Assembly (NCBI GenBank): GCA_041571435.1
Contig: JBFFUI010000004.1
Coordinates: 1-64,000 of the forward strand
Length of the DNA: 64,000 nucleotides
From: Sulfurimonadaceae bacterium
GTDB lineage: Bacteria; Campylobacterota; Campylobacteria; Campylobacterales; Sulfurimonadaceae
Direction: 5' to 3'
This document shows, in pieces, positions 4,757 through 15,120 of this stretch. Below the pieces are notes generated by a model that was not told the DNA's origin, did not search any database, and saw nothing but the letters and a program-made list of their open reading frames with translations. Every line of letters starts with the position of its first letter. Positions within the stretch are counted from its first letter, which is position 1. The position numbers were made by a program, and so were the translations under genes.

Positions 4757-5761
4757 TCAGCGTATTGAAAAGAGGGCAGAGATGGGAAGATGGTCCGAGT
4801 AGCCTCGTGCCATATGGTGTTTCGGATAGTTTCGGCTGCGTTGCCATCGGTAGATCTTTTTGTTTTTGTAAAGATAGGCCGGTTCAAATTTTTGAAAACT
4901 GCCGCTGACGTACTCGATTCCCTTGCCGTCGTTTAGTTTTGGGGAGATAATAAGACTGTCCAGCCCCTCACCCCTGCCACGATATTTATGGCTCCATCGG
5001 CTCTCTGGTGGCAGTTCATACCAGAGGTTGTAGGCACAACCGTTACATGACTTCAGGTCGTTCAGTGTGACCGGTCTGTTGTTGCTGAGTGTCTGAAGGA
5101 TATGGTTGATTCCCGTAATACCGTCGGTGTCATTGTGCTTTCGTTTTCGCACAAAGGTCTCGTACTCTCTGTAATCCGAGTTGAAATCACCCAACAGGAT
5201 GTAGTTGACATCTCCCAGGGTGTTCAGTCGCTCTTTTAACACCTTGGCCGAGACAATACGTTTGCTCTCGGGACCGGACTTGGACTTCCAGTGGTTGACG
5301 AAGAGGTAGAGGGTCTCAGTGCCCAGCTGCACCTTTGCTTCGAGGATGTTACGGTATTTGTATGCGGCCGTGACACGCAGCTCTTTGGTCTGCAGCGGGT
5401 ATTTTGAAAGCAGCGCGACTTTGACTGTCGTATCTTTGGATGAGGCGATGGCGTAATACGGAAAATAGAGCCCGTCGCGCTGTAGCTGCGCTTTGAGGTC
5501 TTTAAGCGCCTGCAGTGATTCGATCTCCTGCAAAGCGATGATGTCCGGAGCCATATCGACAATGACCTTGGCGATGTTTTTGAGTTTGACACGGTAGGTG
5601 TCACTGTTCCATCGCCACGAGGTGTTGGGGATATACTCTTCATACTCATGGCCGCTGTAGTTGAGATCGAAAAGGTTTTCGACATTGTAGGTGGCTATTT
5701 TCATTTCAGCTCCTGAAAGTGCGATGGCCAGCCATAAAAAAAGCGGGAGAAGTTTTTTCAC
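4757..5761 (-). CDS. Exported endonuclease/exonuclease/phosphatase family protein
   Basis: Signal peptide; TYNVENLFD, LQEIE, NHWKSK, GDFNS and SDHLP motifs. Confidence 0.9.
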   Translation of the reverse strand: MKKLLPLFLWLAIALSGAEMKIATYNVENLFDLNYSGHEYEEYIPNTSWRWNSDTYRVKLKNIAKVIVDMAPDIIALQEIESLQALKDLKAQLQRDGLYFPYYAIASSKDTTVKVALLSKYPLQTKELRVTAAYKYRNILEAKVQLGTETLYLFVNHWKSKSGPESKRIVSAKVLKERLNTLGDVNYILLGDFNSDYREYETFVRKRKHNDTDGITGINHILQTLSNNRPVTLNDLKSCNGCAYNLWYELPPESRWSHKYRGRGEGLDSLIISPKLNDGKGIEYVSGSFQKFEPAYLYKNKKIYRWQRSRNYPKHHMARGYSDHLPISALFSIR

Positions 5762-7713
5762 CCGATCCCATTTAGGCGTAACAGACTCTGTGTCTGAGGT
5801 TCACGGCCGAGCAGCTCTTTAAAGAGTACCTGCATGCTCTGTGATCCCCCTTTGGAAAGGATGATGTCCAGGTAATCCCTGCCGAGTTTTGTGTCGAAGA
5901 TACCCTGGTCGACAATGGCAAAAAACGCGTCAGCACTCAGAACCTCCGCCCACTTGTACGAGTAGTATCCGGCCGCGTAACCGCCGGCAAAGATATGTGA
6001 AAACCCGTTCTGGAACTTGTTGTAGCTTGGCGGCGTGATCAGTGCGGTCTTCTGGCGTACACGGTCAAGAAGGTTCTGGACCTCATTGCCTTGATAGAGG
6101 CTCAGGTGCAGCTTGAAGTCAAAGAGCGAGAACTCGAGCTGACGCAGCATGCCCATGGCGGATTGGAAGTTCTTGGCACGGACCAGCTTCTCTATCATCA
6201 GGTCGCTCAGTATCTCACTGCTTTCATGGTGTTTTGCAAAGAGTTTAAGCACTTCCGGCTCATACGCAAAGTTTTCCAAAAACTGTGACGGGAACTCGAC
6301 CGCATCCCACTCGACACCGTTAACACCGCTTACACCGTTCTCATTGACGGTAGAGAACATATGGTGCAGAGCATGACCCATTTCGTGAAAAAGGGTGACC
6401 ACGTCATCATGGCGTAGTAGAGAAGGGCTCTTTTCCGATGACGGCGGGAAGTTACAAACGACGAAAGCAGAGGCAAGCTGCTCATGACCGTTCTCGTCTT
6501 TGCAGTGGCTCTGCCAGTTGTGCATCCAGGCACCGCCGCGTTTGCTCTCGCGGGCCTCAAGGTCCAGGTAGAGACGGGAACGAAGCGTATCATCGACATA
6601 GAGGTCGTAGGCTCGCGCTTTATCGTCCCACAGTGCCACCTCCGCCTCTCGGAAACTCACCCCGAAAAGGCGGTGCAGAAAGACGAACATCCCCTCCACG
6701 ACAGAGTTCTGCTCAAAGTAGGGACGGTATGCCTCTTCATCGATGTCATATTTCTCTTTTTTCAGGATCTCGCTGTAGTAGGCGGTGTCAAAGCTCTCGA
6801 GCGGCGTTTCGCTCATCTCTTTCAACACTTTTAATTCGTCCTGACCCTGCTGGTGTGCATTGGCCGCAAGCTCTTCCAGAAAGTCGATGACGCTCTGCGT
6901 TGTCGGTGCCATCTTGGTGGCGATGGAGTACTCGGCGAAGCTGGTAAAACCAAGCAGTTGGGCTCTCTCCATCTTCAAGGCAAGCAGCTCATCGATGATC
7001 GCAGCGTTCTGGGGTGCTCTGGAGGTGTAGGCACGGTAAAGCTCCTCTCTGTACCCGCGGTTTGGCCCGTAGGTCATATAGGCGATGTATGAAGGCATCT
7101 GCAGGGTGAAACGATAGACGGTCTTACCCTCTTTCTCTGTTTTGGCTGCCTCGATGTCACTTTTCGGCAGCCCTTTGACATCCTCGGCATCTTCGATCAG
7201 CAATTCATAGGCATTGGTGGCATCAAGCAGGTTCTGCGAGAAGGCGTTGGTAAGTTCGCTTTTGCGCAGATTGATCGCTTTTAGACGCTCTTTGGGACCG
7301 AGGTCAAGATGCGCACCGGAGAGCTCAAAACCCTGGATGTTCAGGTCGACAACGCGTTGCTGTTCCTGGTTGAGCGAGCTGTACTCTCTCTCTTTGATGA
7401 TCTTGAACGCTTCATAGATCGCAAGGTTGTGCCCGATCTCTGTAGAGTATTCGGTCAGGATAGGCAGGGCATCTGCATAGACCTTTTGGGTTGTCTCGGA
7501 GTTGTTGACGGCATTGAGGTGCGAGAGCGGCGTGAAGAAGTGGTCAAGCCGTTCATCCATCATCTCAAAGGGTTTGACAAAGTTCTGGTAACTCTTCTCT
7601 TTGATGTCGAGAAGCTGTATGAGTGTTTTACGGTTCCGGTCAAGGTGGTCGTTAAGTTCGCTGATAAAGCTGTCGAGGTTGGTCTGAAAAGGGATAAAAG
7701 GTGATTTGCTCAT
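5758..7713 (-). CDS. prlC: M3 family metallopeptidase (oligopeptidase A)
   Basis: FHEMGHALH zinc motif, DAVEFPSQ, HIFAGGYAAGYYSYKWAEVL. Confidence 0.92.
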   Translation of the reverse strand: MSKSPFIPFQTNLDSFISELNDHLDRNRKTLIQLLDIKEKSYQNFVKPFEMMDERLDHFFTPLSHLNAVNNSETTQKVYADALPILTEYSTEIGHNLAIYEAFKIIKEREYSSLNQEQQRVVDLNIQGFELSGAHLDLGPKERLKAINLRKSELTNAFSQNLLDATNAYELLIEDAEDVKGLPKSDIEAAKTEKEGKTVYRFTLQMPSYIAYMTYGPNRGYREELYRAYTSRAPQNAAIIDELLALKMERAQLLGFTSFAEYSIATKMAPTTQSVIDFLEELAANAHQQGQDELKVLKEMSETPLESFDTAYYSEILKKEKYDIDEEAYRPYFEQNSVVEGMFVFLHRLFGVSFREAEVALWDDKARAYDLYVDDTLRSRLYLDLEARESKRGGAWMHNWQSHCKDENGHEQLASAFVVCNFPPSSEKSPSLLRHDDVVTLFHEMGHALHHMFSTVNENGVSGVNGVEWDAVEFPSQFLENFAYEPEVLKLFAKHHESSEILSDLMIEKLVRAKNFQSAMGMLRQLEFSLFDFKLHLSLYQGNEVQNLLDRVRQKTALITPPSYNKFQNGFSHIFAGGYAAGYYSYKWAEVLSADAFFAIVDQGIFDTKLGRDYLDIILSKGGSQSMQVLFKELLGREPQTQSLLRLNGIG

Positions 7714-7854: not shown

Positions 7855-8424
7855 ATGAAACGACTGCTTATGACACTGCTAGCAACAGCAGGGCTCTTAC
7901 AGGCGGAGTGCTGTCTTGAGATGGCTACGCCGGTGAAGGTTGAGTGGACAGCCTACAAAACACCCAAAAAAATCGGTGTTGACGGCGGTTTTCTGGCAAC
8001 CGTTTACCATGGTAAAAAAGAGGCCGCGGATCTTAAGGGCTTGCTGCTTCACAGCCGTGTTCAGCTCGAGGTCAACAATGTCGATACGAAGGACCCTTTC
8101 CGGGATGCGAAGCTGGTACAGTTCTTTTTCAACATGATGCAGGGGGCGGTGATCGAAGCGGATGTCGTGTCCATAGAAGGTGACGACATGAAGGGTACTC
8201 TAGTGGTCAATATCGCGATGAACAACCGCGCCATCGATGTGCCGCTGGCGTATAGTGTTGATTCGGGAAGGTTCCGGGCCAGGGGTGTTTTAAACCTTCT
8301 TGACTTTAATGCAGAGGAGCCGTTGAAGATGTTGACCCTCAACTGTTATGCACCACACGAAGGCAAGACCTGGGAAGATGTGACTGTTGGTTTCTCTTTT
8401 GATCTGGCTAAGCGCTGCGACTAG
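7855..8424 (+). CDS. YceI-like periplasmic lipid/isoprenoid-binding protein
   Basis: Signal peptide; WTAYKT..GV.G.F and VDTKDPFRD motifs. Confidence 0.8.
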   Translation: MKRLLMTLLATAGLLQAECCLEMATPVKVEWTAYKTPKKIGVDGGFLATVYHGKKEAADLKGLLLHSRVQLEVNNVDTKDPFRDAKLVQFFFNMMQGAVIEADVVSIEGDDMKGTLVVNIAMNNRAIDVPLAYSVDSGRFRARGVLNLLDFNAEEPLKMLTLNCYAPHEGKTWEDVTVGFSFDLAKRCD

Positions 8425-8430
8425 CCTTTT

Positions 8431-9522
8431 TTATAACTCGTTTTCATCTCGCATCGGGCGTGTCGCCCCGAACCTCTGTATCAGGATATCATCATACTTG
8501 TTTGCCGCTTTTCTGAGCCGTTCTAGACCGATCTTGCCCTCTTCAAAAGTCAATGAGGAATCGATGGTGAGATAAGAGAGGATGATGCTGTTTTCACTGA
8601 TGGAGAAGAGGAGGTAGTTGAAGGTGTCATTTTTGTCCAGCAGGTAGTCATACATCGCTTCGATGTTCTCTTTAGGCATGTTGCAGAGCAGGGCATCGGC
8701 CATGATAATGCCGTTCTCATAGAAGTTGAGATGGATACGGGCGCTGCCCTCGTCAAATTTCCAGCTGCGCTGACTCTCTCTGGCGATGGTGACATCGATA
8801 TGAAGGGCAGAAAGTATCTTTTCGATGAGGGCGACGACGCCGGATGGCCGGTAGCCCAGACGGCGCTGCTTGGCGACATCGAGTTTGACACCGCAGCTCG
8901 GGCAGAAGTCATTGATGATCTGCGCCTCTTCAATAAGGTTCTTGCAGGAGAAACAGCGGATGATATTCTTTTTGCCGAGGGCTTTAAAGGCGTCGATCGC
9001 TTCGCGGACATAGTAGTAGGGAAGGGCAAAGCCGAGGTTCTGTGTGTTGAGCAGGATAAAGGTGTTGACCCCGATGACTTCGCCGTCGGCATTGAGTACC
9101 GGACCGCCACTGTTTCCGGGGTTGATCGCGGCATCGATCTGAAGGTATTCGACGTCGCCCTCGAGCCTATTCGATTTGGAGACGATCCCCTCCGTTGTTG
9201 AGTAGTTGAGGCCGTAAGGGTGGCCGATAGCGATGGCGACATCCCCGTCGTGGACGGTTTCTGAACTCAGGACCAGATGATTGTCGATACGCATCTGCGG
9301 CCGTGCGATAAAGGCAAGGTCCAGGACCTGGTCATCATAGATGACGGCCGCCTTTTGGCGTTTGAGTGTCTTGGCCGAGATCACCACCTCTTTGAGACCG
9401 CTGACAACATGGGCGTTCGTGATGATGAGGTCATCGATGACAAAGCCGCTGCCGCTGCCGTATGGGGTGCTGATCTGGATGATGTTGTTGATGTAGGTCT
9501 GGAGTATGGTCTGTGTGTTCAT
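8431..9522 (-). CDS. Cytoplasmic trypsin-like (S1C) serine protease with Zn ribbon and C-terminal YbjN/CesT-like domain
   Basis: GSGF, TNAHVV, DLA and INPGNSGGP triad motifs; CFSC...CPSC; no signal peptide and no PDZ domain. Confidence 0.88.
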   Translation of the reverse strand: MNTQTILQTYINNIIQISTPYGSGSGFVIDDLIITNAHVVSGLKEVVISAKTLKRQKAAVIYDDQVLDLAFIARPQMRIDNHLVLSSETVHDGDVAIAIGHPYGLNYSTTEGIVSKSNRLEGDVEYLQIDAAINPGNSGGPVLNADGEVIGVNTFILLNTQNLGFALPYYYVREAIDAFKALGKKNIIRCFSCKNLIEEAQIINDFCPSCGVKLDVAKQRRLGYRPSGVVALIEKILSALHIDVTIARESQRSWKFDEGSARIHLNFYENGIIMADALLCNMPKENIEAMYDYLLDKNDTFNYLLFSISENSIILSYLTIDSSLTFEEGKIGLERLRKAANKYDDILIQRFGATRPMRDENEL

Positions 9523-10847
9523 CGTTCGGTATAGTTCAGGTTTTTTAGATGCAGAAAAAAACTGTGGCTGAACTCCTCCACTGTGGTATAGTCGAGCGTT
9601 TTTCCAAAAGGCTTGAGATGCGTGAACTGCTTCTGATAGGGGGTGATGGCATCACTGATCGCGGTGATGATGGCATCTTTTTCAAAGCGGTTCTTCTCTT
9701 TGTGGTAGTAGGCTTTATAGCCCAGTGTGACAAAGTAATCGCTGTTTTGGACCTCGACGATCAGATGCAGCAGTGCCCGGTATGAGGGGTGTAGTCCATA
9801 GTTGTAGAGGATATAGAGCGGGATATAGCGGTTGATCGTCGATGCCACGTGTTCATAACGGTGGTGTCTGAACCAGCGAAACTTCTCCAGGGAGGCCTCG
9901 ATGAAGAGGTTCAACTCCTCCATGGTGGTGTGCTCCATCGGCGAGAAGGTGTAGTGTGCTTTGTAACACTGGGAGACGAACGCTTCATAGGGAAGCTTTT
10001 GCAGCGACTCAATAAAGAGAAGCAGCTCGTCGTTCTTCTGTTCGACAAGGCGCTCATCATCCGTAAAGTAGCTGTTGATCTTCTCAAAGGTCTCCTGCAT
10101 GATATCTTTGTGCGGGACGATGAGGTAGTCGATCTGAAAAAGCAGACTCAACAGTGTGAAAGAGACGGTACTGATGTTGTCATTGGCGGGGAGCTGCGTG
10201 AGATCTTTTTGACAATCCGTGATCCAGCTCTGCATGGCGTCGTACTTGATACGAAGCTCATTGTCGTCGATCGGCAGCAGGTGGTCGACTTCGATGAGAC
10301 GTTTCTGTTTGTAGTGGTAGTGCAGATACTCTTTCTCATAGTCGGCATTGAGCGCAAGCTCACGAAGGGGGTAGAAGATCTTCTGGGGTGTCATGGTGGT
10401 GTTGTCAAGATAGAGCTTGAGCATCAGAAAATCTCCGTGCGTATAGTAGCGGATGTAGGTGAGCTGCTCGTTGCGCTCCAGGATATGGCGTTTGATCGCG
10501 ACGTTCATCAAGTCCCTGCTTGTAATGATACTGTGGGCTTCGAATGTCTTCTCTGTGACGGTTCCGCGAATGATAGCCGTTCCCTGATAGAGGGTAAAGT
10601 GAAGGGTCTCCTCTTCATAGTGGAGCCGGACGTTCTCGTTGGAGAGAGCGGCATTGAAGTTTTCCAGCGAACGGAGATAATATTCGAACGCTTCCACTTT
10701 CTTGCCTTCGCGAAAAGCCTCTACCGCCTGGTTGAAGAGTTCGTGTTCCTGGGGGTTGAGCTGGGCGTTGATACTGCGGCCGAAATGGTGGACAATGGGT
10801 TTTGCAGTCTTGGCGTGATGGAAGAGACGATAAAACCAGTCACTCAT
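9519..10847 (-). CDS. Hypothetical protein with N-terminal TPR-like hairpin, YbjN-like domain and helical C-terminus
   Basis: About 442 aa ORF; RBS AAGGAG 5 nt before ATG 10847; ATGA overlap with the protease; QGTAII...ILERNEQLTY...ELALNAD pattern parallels the protease C-domain. Confidence 0.75.
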   Translation of the reverse strand: MSDWFYRLFHHAKTAKPIVHHFGRSINAQLNPQEHELFNQAVEAFREGKKVEAFEYYLRSLENFNAALSNENVRLHYEEETLHFTLYQGTAIIRGTVTEKTFEAHSIITSRDLMNVAIKRHILERNEQLTYIRYYTHGDFLMLKLYLDNTTMTPQKIFYPLRELALNADYEKEYLHYHYKQKRLIEVDHLLPIDDNELRIKYDAMQSWITDCQKDLTQLPANDNISTVSFTLLSLLFQIDYLIVPHKDIMQETFEKINSYFTDDERLVEQKNDELLLFIESLQKLPYEAFVSQCYKAHYTFSPMEHTTMEELNLFIEASLEKFRWFRHHRYEHVASTINRYIPLYILYNYGLHPSYRALLHLIVEVQNSDYFVTLGYKAYYHKEKNRFEKDAIITAISDAITPYQKQFTHLKPFGKTLDYTTVEEFSHSFFLHLKNLNYTER

Positions 10848-10920
10848 CAATGCTCCTTACTGCAATTGGTATGATTTGAGTATAGAGCGTAGCGCCTGAA
10901 AATGTCTTTAGAACCGCACA

Positions 10921-12888: not shown

Positions 12889-15120
12889 TTACCGGGGAGG
12901 AAAGAGTTTTCTTCTGGCTATCACGGCGCCGATAGCAAGAAATCCGAGGATCATCAGAACAAGAGTGGAATTGTCAACCGTATCGAACAGCTGCACAACC
13001 GTATCACTGTTGTGCTGCGGGGTCACATCATCTTCAGGCGGCGGTGGTACGACGACTGTCCCATCATCAGAAGTGGATACGCTGAACTTCGTATAGGAGC
13101 CGCCGAGCCCCGCCTCGTTATTGGTCTCGTTCCATACGGCGAAGACGATATTGCCGGCCGGCGTCGCACGCAGCTGCGACTCGGCACGGTAGCTGCTGCC
13201 GATACCCTCGACGACAGTCGTCGGCGTGTAACTCTCCCCCTTGTCTCTTGTCCTCGTATAGTAGATATCGCCGTCGACCGCACCGCCGATAAGGTCATAG
13301 ACATTGCTCTCCACACCCCACGCTGCGATCAGGACACTCTTGTCCTGACAGTTTTCAGGGTTTGTGATATTGCCCGGGTCAGTGCATCCCGGACCATTTC
13401 CCATCATACCGACAAGACGGGGTTCTTTGACATTGATCTTCTTGTCAGCTACCCCGGAGAGATTTTTGGCGACACTCCAACTATTCGTCGGTGCATGGTA
13501 GCGGCGCACCCAGAAGTTATAGTTCTCCAAGTCGGTATATCTAGACACTGCCCAATCTTTTGTGTAGGTGTAGCCGATATGAAAGTCGTCTCCGCGGATC
13601 ACTGCACGATGCGCCCTTGCATCTTCATAGTTGTTTTTCTCCGTACTGTCCTCCAGCGTGTTTGTCGGCGGCTCTTCCGCACCGCCAACCGGTGTCCAGG
13701 GGATGGTGTTGCTGCTGATGTTGTAGGCGGGGGCATTGTTGAGTGCGATCGCTTCGGCATAGACCGAAGTCCTCGCATTCGCATCGACAGGCGGTACCAT
13801 GTCTTCGGGTCTGAGACCCGTGGAGGCGGAGTCGCCGCTCGTCTTAAAACCTAGACGGACCATAATGTCTGCCGGTCCGCCCTCGACGGCATTGCCCTGT
13901 CGCCACAGTACTCCCATGCGCATGCCGTCAGCCGAAGGCTTGGTCTGCGTCACAAAACGGACGCGGCGGCTGTTCTCCGCCGGATCACTGATGATGGCAC
14001 CGGACTGCCCAATATCAGGCGCATTGAACGCAAATGAATGGTAACGGACATACTTTCCTTCGTCCAGCCCGGACGACCCCTTTGTCTCCTCGTAGGCGAC
14101 GATGGCGGTCGGGACCGTCTCGCCCGGCATCAATCCGACCAGCGCCGTATTGGCACGCGATGCACCGCTGCTTCCGGTCTCGAGAGCTGTGATCTCGGTC
14201 GTGCCGTCATGCGAGAAGACGGGGTTGTTGATGCCTCCGCTGCCGACATTGGTAAAGTTGTCCGTGAGCCGGGTCGGCGTGTTGGTGAATCCGGCCATGA
14301 GATCTTCGGTATAGGCGTACCAGATATCGGTACCGTGCGTCACCTTGGCGCCGGAGGAGCCGTCACCCGGGCCTTCGGCATTACCGATCTGTAGACCGTG
14401 CGGGTCCTCCTGCCAGGTAATGACCCATTTCCCCTTTGCCGGCGACCCCATGCTGAGGCCCCTGTTGACGTCCTGTTTCGCGTCGCGGATACCGCTTGTC
14501 AGACGGCTTGTGACCCAGGTCGGTGTCGCATCCGCAAAGTTGATATGGGACTCGTAGACGCAGGAGAAAGGTAGCGAGAGGCCGCCTCTCTCGATGTAGC
14601 TGACGATCCGCTGTTCGGTCTCGTCGCAGTACTTGTCTATCCAGGTGACCACGGTGAAGTTCCCGGAACTGAAGATGTTCGGTTTCTCGGAATCACCGTA
14701 ATAGGGCTCTTCCGACCCGAGGACGCCGTTCGTCCTGCGCCATCTTGTCGATATACTGAAATTGTCCGCCGTATTTGAGATGTTGATGGCAGGCGTCCAG
14801 TCCGACTGCGAGCTGCAGTAGCCGTTTGTGGCCGTCGGCATACAGGTACGCACAAAGATGTCCCTTGCTTTTCGGATCTTATCGTCCTTGAGATCGTAGA
14901 CATCATGCTGGCTGGCAACAGCATCGCCATATACGGCGATCAGCAGACCCTTTCCAAGCCTTACCAGCTTTGTCTTTGACGCCGACCCGTCACCGTTAAC
15001 CACGCCGTCCGATGAGAGTGTTTCGGGCGGTGTAAATCCGAGAGCCCCAAAGAGAGTTGTCCCCATCAATAAAGCACTCACACCTAAATGCATCACTCGA
15101 TTATGTAACATGTATCGCAT
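12889..15120 (-). CDS. Large secreted protein with C-terminal membrane anchor (choice-of-anchor O-like)
   Basis: Signal peptide; WQEDPHGL...EGPGDG.SGA...GTDIWY motif; Asp-box-like TRDKGESY; Pro-rich linker, TM helix and basic RRKLFPPR tail; RBS GAGGAG. Confidence 0.75.
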   Translation of the reverse strand: MRYMLHNRVMHLGVSALLMGTTLFGALGFTPPETLSSDGVVNGDGSASKTKLVRLGKGLLIAVYGDAVASQHDVYDLKDDKIRKARDIFVRTCMPTATNGYCSSQSDWTPAINISNTADNFSISTRWRRTNGVLGSEEPYYGDSEKPNIFSSGNFTVVTWIDKYCDETEQRIVSYIERGGLSLPFSCVYESHINFADATPTWVTSRLTSGIRDAKQDVNRGLSMGSPAKGKWVITWQEDPHGLQIGNAEGPGDGSSGAKVTHGTDIWYAYTEDLMAGFTNTPTRLTDNFTNVGSGGINNPVFSHDGTTEITALETGSSGASRANTALVGLMPGETVPTAIVAYEETKGSSGLDEGKYVRYHSFAFNAPDIGQSGAIISDPAENSRRVRFVTQTKPSADGMRMGVLWRQGNAVEGGPADIMVRLGFKTSGDSASTGLRPEDMVPPVDANARTSVYAEAIALNNAPAYNISSNTIPWTPVGGAEEPPTNTLEDSTEKNNYEDARAHRAVIRGDDFHIGYTYTKDWAVSRYTDLENYNFWVRRYHAPTNSWSVAKNLSGVADKKINVKEPRLVGMMGNGPGCTDPGNITNPENCQDKSVLIAAWGVESNVYDLIGGAVDGDIYYTRTRDKGESYTPTTVVEGIGSSYRAESQLRATPAGNIVFAVWNETNNEAGLGGSYTKFSVSTSDDGTVVVPPPPEDDVTPQHNSDTVVQLFDTVDNSTLVLMILGFLAIGAVIARRKLFPPR

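Follow-up and report, generated by a model that had tools for sequence, protein, structure and literature searches.

In a stretch of DNA from a Sulfurimonadaceae bacterium (assembly GCA_041571435.1, contig JBFFUI010000004.1, positions 1–64,000 of the forward strand; these 64,000 nucleotides (nt) are called the window here), two overlapping genes on the minus strand encode an atypical protease of the HtrA family and, directly upstream of it, a protein of 442 amino acids (aa) which we term the partner. The pair is genuine and conserved, and as a module it has so far not been described; it is a variant within the HtrA family. The following features make up the locus:

10853–10858, minus strand: Shine-Dalgarno-like AAGGAG, read from the sequence
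9519–10847, minus strand: partner gene, 442 aa, open reading frame (ORF) from the ATG at 10847; an in-frame TTG at 10850 would give 443 aa
10758–10847, minus strand: partner N-terminal tail, residues 1–30, mostly low-confidence or extended, with an F22-G23-R24 motif
10308–10760, minus strand: partner N-domain, residues ~30–180, with the fold of type III secretion system (T3SS) chaperones and YbjN (TY-chaperone fold), from Foldseek
9546–10265, minus strand: partner C-domain, residues ~195–434, all-helical in the model
9519–9522, minus strand: ATGA overlap of partner stop and protease start, translational coupling
8431–9522, minus strand: protease gene, ORF of 363 aa plus stop
8977–9483, minus strand: HtrA/DegS-type S1C protease domain, residues ~14–182, triad H38, D68 and S138
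8884–8967, minus strand: four-cysteine zinc ribbon, residues ~186–213, with C190, C193, C207 and C210; weak Pfam ribbon matches
8470–8850, minus strand: protease C-domain, residues ~225–351, YbjN/TY-chaperone-like from secondary structure, Pfam matches in relatives and profile comparison

Because AAGGAG is located 5 nt upstream, the ATG at 10847 is the likelier start of the partner gene. The junction reads cgATGAac, with the protease ATG at 9522–9520 and the partner TGA at 9521–9519, so that three bases are common to both within the 4-nt ATGA. The overlap claimed in a preliminary description of this locus, which had been made from the sequence alone, is thus borne out.

The translated protease contains the motifs TNAHV (with H38), DLA (D68) and GNSGG (S138), followed by the ribbon pattern C190-x2-C193 ... 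C207-x2-C210. Pfam finds Trypsin_2 at residues 24–152 with an expect (E) value of 9.5e-24, together with Trypsin and weak zinc ribbons, but no PDZ domain, either in this protein or in the other members of its family. In all 27 relatives the triad and the cysteines are unchanged. Across two phyla, in a set of 52 orthologues (the window and 51 further loci), the aspartate, the serine, the four ribbon cysteines and W254 are present in all 52 and the histidine in 51. From this conservation the protease is expected to be an active enzyme that binds metal. The NCBIfam models for Do/HtrA align only to residues ~22–184, which likewise speaks against a PDZ domain, and the best of them reaches 147.4 bits against a cut-off of 416.2; none of the cut-offs for Do, DegS, DegQ and HhoA is attained. 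A search of the organism's own genome gave the same picture, the Do-family model aligning to the window protease over profile positions 57–232 only, and located elsewhere a canonical DegP/HtrA with 446 bits, above the cut-off. The window protease is therefore an additional, atypical paralogue.

HtrA proteases are usually PDZ-gated and serve extracytoplasmic quality control. Judged by hydropathy, neither the protease nor the partner has an N-terminal hydrophobic segment; the peaks over 19 residues are internal in both proteins (1.67 at residue 229 and 1.59 at residue 225) and fall within confidently folded domains. From the polar N-termini and the invariant four-cysteine ribbon we infer that the protease is probably located in the cytoplasm. 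The AlphaFold2 model, for which an alignment of 27 relatives was used as input with each of the two proteins, has a mean predicted local distance difference test (pLDDT) value of 90.1 and a predicted template modelling (pTM) score of 0.86. All four properties that had been read from the sequence beforehand, namely an intact triad, a CxxC...CxxC ribbon and the lack of both a PDZ domain and a signal peptide, hold.

For the partner the corresponding values are a pLDDT of 90.0 and a pTM of 0.88, with 40–85 in the first three blocks of the tail. Its N-domain has the T3SS-chaperone/YbjN fold, with which a Foldseek search agrees, also retrieving YbjN of Escherichia coli (6vu7), and the domain shows the alpha-beta(3)-alpha-beta(2)-alpha order of class I chaperones, in agreement with the YbjN-like fold that had been proposed for it. 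The helical C-domain of ~240 residues has no specific known relative, and neither a sequence search of the PDB nor the ESM Atlas adds anything. No Pfam, NCBIfam or PADLOC family was found for the partner. When 99 partner sequences are aligned, identity reaches 90% or more at 50 positions. Conserved polar residues include R24, N72, Q88, R120, E124, N126, K156, E163, D169, D240, K271 and T300; conservation is strongest in the stretch 156–170, the last helix of the chaperone-fold domain. Within the tail, F22 is kept in 93%, G23 in 98% and R24 in 98% of the sequences.

The C-domain of the protease is, judged from its sequence profile, a homologue of the N-domain of the partner. The preliminary description had pointed out parallel patterns in the two proteins, and these are indeed present in the translations (W..EGSA.I, LLDKN and KYDDIL..FGA in the protease; F..QGTA.I, ILERN and LALNAD in the partner). 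The likeness goes beyond chance: hhalign of partner residues 28–185 against protease residues 215–363 gave a probability of 89.6% and an E-value of 1.9e-6 over 112 columns, and the two control pairings remained below 1%. Moreover, the partner profile cross-matches the protease C-domain in one Bacteroidia genome (G527; G-numbers denote sampled genomes, L-numbers sampled loci) with E 2.3e-6. In the model the C-domain shows the order helix, three strands, helix, two strands, helix, which fits the TY-chaperone fold. With the C-terminal part alone as query, 124 relatives were obtained. In the 27 family members, Pfam reports YbjN in eight (best E 8.7e-6), CesT_Tir_1 in three and TY-Chap1 in three, and the cross-phylum profile, built from ribbon and C-domain only, aligns to 2plg_A across the whole C-domain with E 0.037. 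On these grounds the protease C-domain likely belongs to the YbjN/TY-chaperone family.

Standalone frames of ~143–173 aa from Bacteroidia (G449, G593, G599, G571, G605, G445, G489) match the protease C-domain profile in its chaperone-fold columns 32/42–165 only, with E 1e-11 to 1e-12. Probably these are plain members of the YbjN family, and the domain fused to the protease may descend from such proteins.

Three samples of genomes were searched for both genes: 401 from Campylobacterota, 301 from Bacteroidia and 141 from Bacteroidota, the last with four positives in common with the Bacteroidia sample. The partner occurs in 20 Campylobacterota genomes, 19 of them with strong matches and all 19 belonging to the family of the window; the ribbon and C-domain profile matches strongly (E<=3e-64) in the same 19. 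The remaining 16 genomes of this family have neither gene, and within genus g2 the distribution is patchy (13 of 21 genomes). The same 16 Bacteroidia genomes contain the partner and a protease-type match in a frame of ~300–415 aa, and the other 285 are without a partner; three further genomes there have only standalone YbjN-like frames of ~150 aa and no partner. In the Bacteroidota sample both genes are found in the same 10 genomes. The co-occurrence is thus exact in all three samples, which makes the functional link between the two genes unusually secure. We regard as securely shown a PDZ-less, active-looking and probably cytoplasmic HtrA-type protease which carries a four-cysteine ribbon and a chaperone-fold domain and is functionally tied to a partner with a homologous domain.

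The twentieth Campylobacterota match is a weak one (G121, E 2.1e-5). Here and in a congener (G274), which belong to another family of this phylum, the ribbon and C-domain profile gives E ~1e-13, and both genomes have a divergent adjacent pair (L020, 336–2619, and L118), G274 having a homologue of the G121 upstream gene beside the protease. The pair in G121 consists of a 402-aa upstream protein, 19–21% identical to the window partner and with a hydrophobic C-terminal stretch, and a protease of ~357 aa in which ribbon and C-domain recur; the upstream gene of this pair is missed by the diverse partner profile at 1e-5. Partners that are likewise short, at ~400 aa, occur in the Bacteroidota genomes G451, G495 and G556. 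Another 33 Campylobacterota matches to the ribbon and C-domain profile (E 2e-4 to 1e-3) were discounted, as they cover profile columns 1–60 only and stem from the ribbons of unrelated frames of ~290 or ~640 aa.

Conservation of gene order was judged from the loci of these genomes and from a scan of species-representative genomes, in which a sub-alignment of distant partner members served as query, 359 of 369 candidate stretches were confirmed and the best 80 of the 359 were taken as loci. These 80 come from Saprospiraceae, Lewinellaceae, Chitinophagales, other Bacteroidota and metagenome-assembled genomes of Ignavibacteria. The protease lies directly downstream of the partner at all 19 Sulfurimonadaceae loci and at L020, and adjacent pairs were found in 14 of the 16 positive Bacteroidia and nine of the 10 positive Bacteroidota genomes. 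Intergenic distances range from -4 to +5 nt at the 18 other Sulfurimonadaceae loci and from -4 to 127 nt at 29 Bacteroidota loci. Among the best 80 loci these 29 have the protease downstream and 43, with a flank of at least 1200 nt, do not; eight are too short to judge. The two genes are thus usually adjacent and the expectation of conserved linkage is supported, but adjacency is not obligatory: in the set rich in Saprospiraceae, 29 of 72 testable loci are linked and 43 have no protease next to the partner. Five unlinked genomes of Saprospiraceae type were inspected further: four hold a full-length protease orthologue elsewhere, and no second partner is located beside it. From this co-occurrence, which persists where the genes have drifted apart, we argue for a joint cellular function.

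The family of the partner is not small and spans Sulfurimonadaceae, Saprospiraceae/Chitinophagales and Ignavibacteria. A word-indexed search returned 275 relatives at E<=1e-3, the named ones all being from Sulfurimonas, Sulfurimonadaceae or Campylobacterota. An exhaustive profile search of representatives clustered at 50% yielded 631 at E<=1e-3, of which 495 pass 1e-10 and 268 pass 1e-30; lengths of ~440 aa predominate. The source names encountered among relatives of both proteins are all "hypothetical protein" or a generic trypsin-like or Do peptidase. A quick maximum-likelihood tree of the partner was calculated from 61 of the 99 rows (all 19 from Sulfurimonadaceae, four from Ignavibacteria and every second of the remaining 76; L020 was left out). 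It places the Sulfurimonadaceae in one clan with a support of 100, separated by a long branch from the rows of Bacteroidota and Ignavibacteria. Pairwise identities of partner and protease are correlated (Pearson 0.93, 47 pairs), which is consistent with a common history but is not independent support, because shared descent alone would give it. One partner match (G771:C1:1116437-1117348) has a single in-frame TAG; the gene may be disrupted, the codon may be an error of sequencing, or two ORFs may be present.

Taken together, we propose that the pair forms a conserved chromosomal two-gene module for ATP-independent cytoplasmic proteolysis, in which paired chaperone folds take the role of the PDZ domain, and we put the probability of this reading at about 0.5. 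The protease would be an HtrA-family enzyme that lost its signal peptide and PDZ domain and received a zinc ribbon and a TY-chaperone domain in their place. The class I chaperone fold characteristically dimerises, and by analogy to the dimers of these chaperones and to SycN-YscB the two chaperone-fold domains may pair with each other. Such a paired platform could capture an extended segment of a polypeptide and either pass it on to the active site or control access to that site, with specificity or a signal input supplied by the helical domain of the partner. The likely role would be a cellular one, in quality control or regulated turnover, and in Sulfurimonas the module may be coupled to an M3 oligopeptidase clearing the resulting peptides. 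Only tentatively do we go one step further and suggest that the pair would found a class of its own among regulated cytoplasmic proteases that need no ATP, in which a hetero-pair of T3SS-chaperone/YbjN folds would replace the PDZ domain, recognise unfolded or extended polypeptides and switch the protease on.

Several observations weigh against the proposed module. The C-domain of the window protease itself stays below every Pfam threshold for YbjN, YbjN was matched in only one of 17 sequences of the cross-phylum set, and the structural search with the whole protease model covered residues 1–190 only. Therefore, the fold of the C-domain rests on the relatives, the profile comparison and the order of secondary structure elements; the YbjN-like nature that had been ascribed to it is likely from the family (8 of 27 relatives, 2plg_A), but no Pfam match of the window sequence backs it. 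The 43 unlinked loci have to be counted here too, as does one of the five unlinked genomes (G404), in which no full-length protease orthologue was found. No fusion of partner and protease was found, as ribbon plus C-domain occur in no protein of 637–2000 aa; this is weak evidence. The M3 oligopeptidase is absent from the Bacteroidota loci, i.e. its linkage is not seen outside Sulfurimonadaceae. Finally, the invariant polar residues of the partner (Q88, K156, E163, D169, D240) may point to an enzymatic or ligand-binding function, for which the module model has no explanation.

The last point leads to the main rival of the chaperone-pair mechanism. Here the partner would be a dedicated substrate or pro-protein, cut in its N-terminal tail at the FGR motif so that the helical domain is released or activated, or else an inhibitor that acts stoichiometrically until a signal leads to its removal. 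Both the conserved F22-G23-R24 within an extended, lower-confidence tail and the many invariant polar residues, which suggest an activity of the partner's own, would suit this, and strict co-occurrence fits an enzyme and its client equally well. A simple substrate relation, however, leaves the homologous chaperone-fold domains unexplained, and the partner belongs to no recognisable enzyme or DNA-binding family; we hold this explanation to be rather doubtful. It is improbable, too, that the two proteins act in the same pathway without forming a complex, for instance each on its own in the handling of unfolded proteins, and are inherited together only by way of shared regulation. The exact co-occurrence in every sample searched, stops and starts that overlap or nearly do so in most linked loci and the presence in both proteins of homologous domains of a characteristically dimerising fold, which by analogy would pair, all speak for a closer relation, even though the genes are unlinked in many Saprospiraceae-type genomes, a fusion protein was not found and standalone YbjN-like ORFs of ~150 aa occur without a partner in three of 301 Bacteroidia genomes.

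A conflict module had been raised in the preliminary description; the protease would then act as effector, and the partner as its sensor or antitoxin, in phage defence, abortive infection or a toxin-antitoxin system. Cytoplasmic trypsin-like domains serve as effectors in several defence systems, the RT-Protease_XI models of PADLOC match the protease with 2.9e-19, the genes are tightly paired and their patchy presence within genus g2 would be in line with such a role. Yet the PADLOC match is confined to the protease domain and the partner has none. Among 94 neighbouring ORFs at 25 linked loci there were seven PADLOC matches at E<=1e-10, and a real defence system is located at only one of these loci, L042, with a restriction-modification methylase and a specificity subunit; the other matches are partial and methyltransferase-like or concern a protease domain. 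In the window the pair is flanked by genes for an M3 oligopeptidase, a YceI-like protein, a DUF4136 lipoprotein and a DUF2238 membrane protein. No relatives of the partner were found in the viral contigs of IMG/VR, in phage records or in plasmid records, and the partner tree tracks host groups, as seen in the fully supported Sulfurimonadaceae clan. Since both genes are kept where they lie far apart, in four of the five genomes examined, a stable cellular complex is a better fit than a mobile cassette serving defence or acting as toxin and antitoxin. Thus, a role in phage defence is unlikely, and of the conflict explanations as a whole we think little.

Which known systems come closest to the proposed module? 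HtrA, DegP, DegS and DegQ (MEROPS S1C) share with the window protease the chymotrypsin-fold domain with its His-Asp-Ser triad. The latter differs from them in having no signal peptide, membrane anchor or PDZ domain, in scoring far below the NCBIfam cut-offs, and in bearing a four-cysteine ribbon and a chaperone-fold domain along with an obligate partner gene. The type XI retron RT-protease (RT, reverse transcriptase) and the trypsin-like effectors of nucleoside triphosphate (NTP)-dependent conflict systems also have a cytoplasmic trypsin-like domain, but the window pair comes without reverse transcriptase, NTPase or other sensor and is not associated with islands or mobile elements. In RsgI9 of Clostridium thermocellum (7sjy) an S1C domain is combined with an NTF2 domain as part of what is, by the title of the entry, an anti-sigma factor. 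Its accessory fold presumably differs from that of the window protease, and we know of no partner gene of the kind seen here.

On the side of the chaperone fold, YbjN, AmyR, DR1245 and Tll0839 (2plg) constitute PF10722 in the clan TypeIII_Chap, a family whose cut-off is not reached by the window's own sequences; in the window pair the fold occurs in two fusions, one with a protease and one with a large helical domain. From SycN-YscB (1xkp), ExsC-ExsE (3kxy) and CesT-CsrA (5z38), which are class I T3SS chaperone pairs and partner-switch proteins, the window pair differs in that its function is tied to a protease and its pairing is predicted by analogy; the surroundings of the pair showed no sign of a secretion system. 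The term TY-chaperone, which unites T3SS chaperones with YbjN, is taken from PMC9503650. According to a 2026 review (PMC13466201), no branch of the type III chaperone clan is more widespread or less understood than YbjN, its known members being small, standalone and of poorly defined roles. In the literature outside subscription journals and supplements, neither an HtrA-ribbon-YbjN protease nor its partner was found to be described, in accordance with the earlier statement that no characterised system has this architecture. If the proposal is true, a cytoplasmic HtrA branch that uses a chaperone fold in place of PDZ and an obligate partner of the same fold would represent a different regulatory solution, and the YbjN fold would gain its first defined molecular job outside secretion. 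The pair would then also open the YbjN family to experimental tests.

The 29 linked Bacteroidota loci have no conserved gene apart from the pair; the next commonest cluster is found in 10 of them. In Sulfurimonadaceae a neighbour of the protease is the gene for the M3 oligopeptidase (window 5758–7713, minus strand), which at 14 of the 18 other loci follows the protease on the same strand. At L003, where the M3 gene is at 3–398, partner, protease and M3 oligopeptidase are separated by 2-nt spacers, and this close spacing suggests a three-gene operon there. As a universal third member the M3 oligopeptidase was rejected, given its absence in Bacteroidota. Between the protease and M3 genes of the window a YceI-like gene is located (7855–8424, plus strand; Pfam E 3.3e-4, below the cut-off) which has an N-terminal hydrophobic leader and is missing in the closest relative, L002, as well as at the other loci; it has the look of a local insertion into an ancestral string of genes, which it interrupts.

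Scans of the locus for promoters and terminators gave nothing above shuffled controls, and none of the 20 sequencing runs that contain the stretch is an RNA run. One Saprospiraceae locus has a second protease paralogue of HtrA-like type (L081, 2427–3617, plus strand), situated ~400 nt upstream of the gene for the partner. Elsewhere in the window, a Gly/Ser/Thr-rich ORF of 743 aa (12889–15120, minus strand) has a hydrophobic segment at its N-terminus and, at its C-terminus, a hydrophobic tail resembling an anchor.

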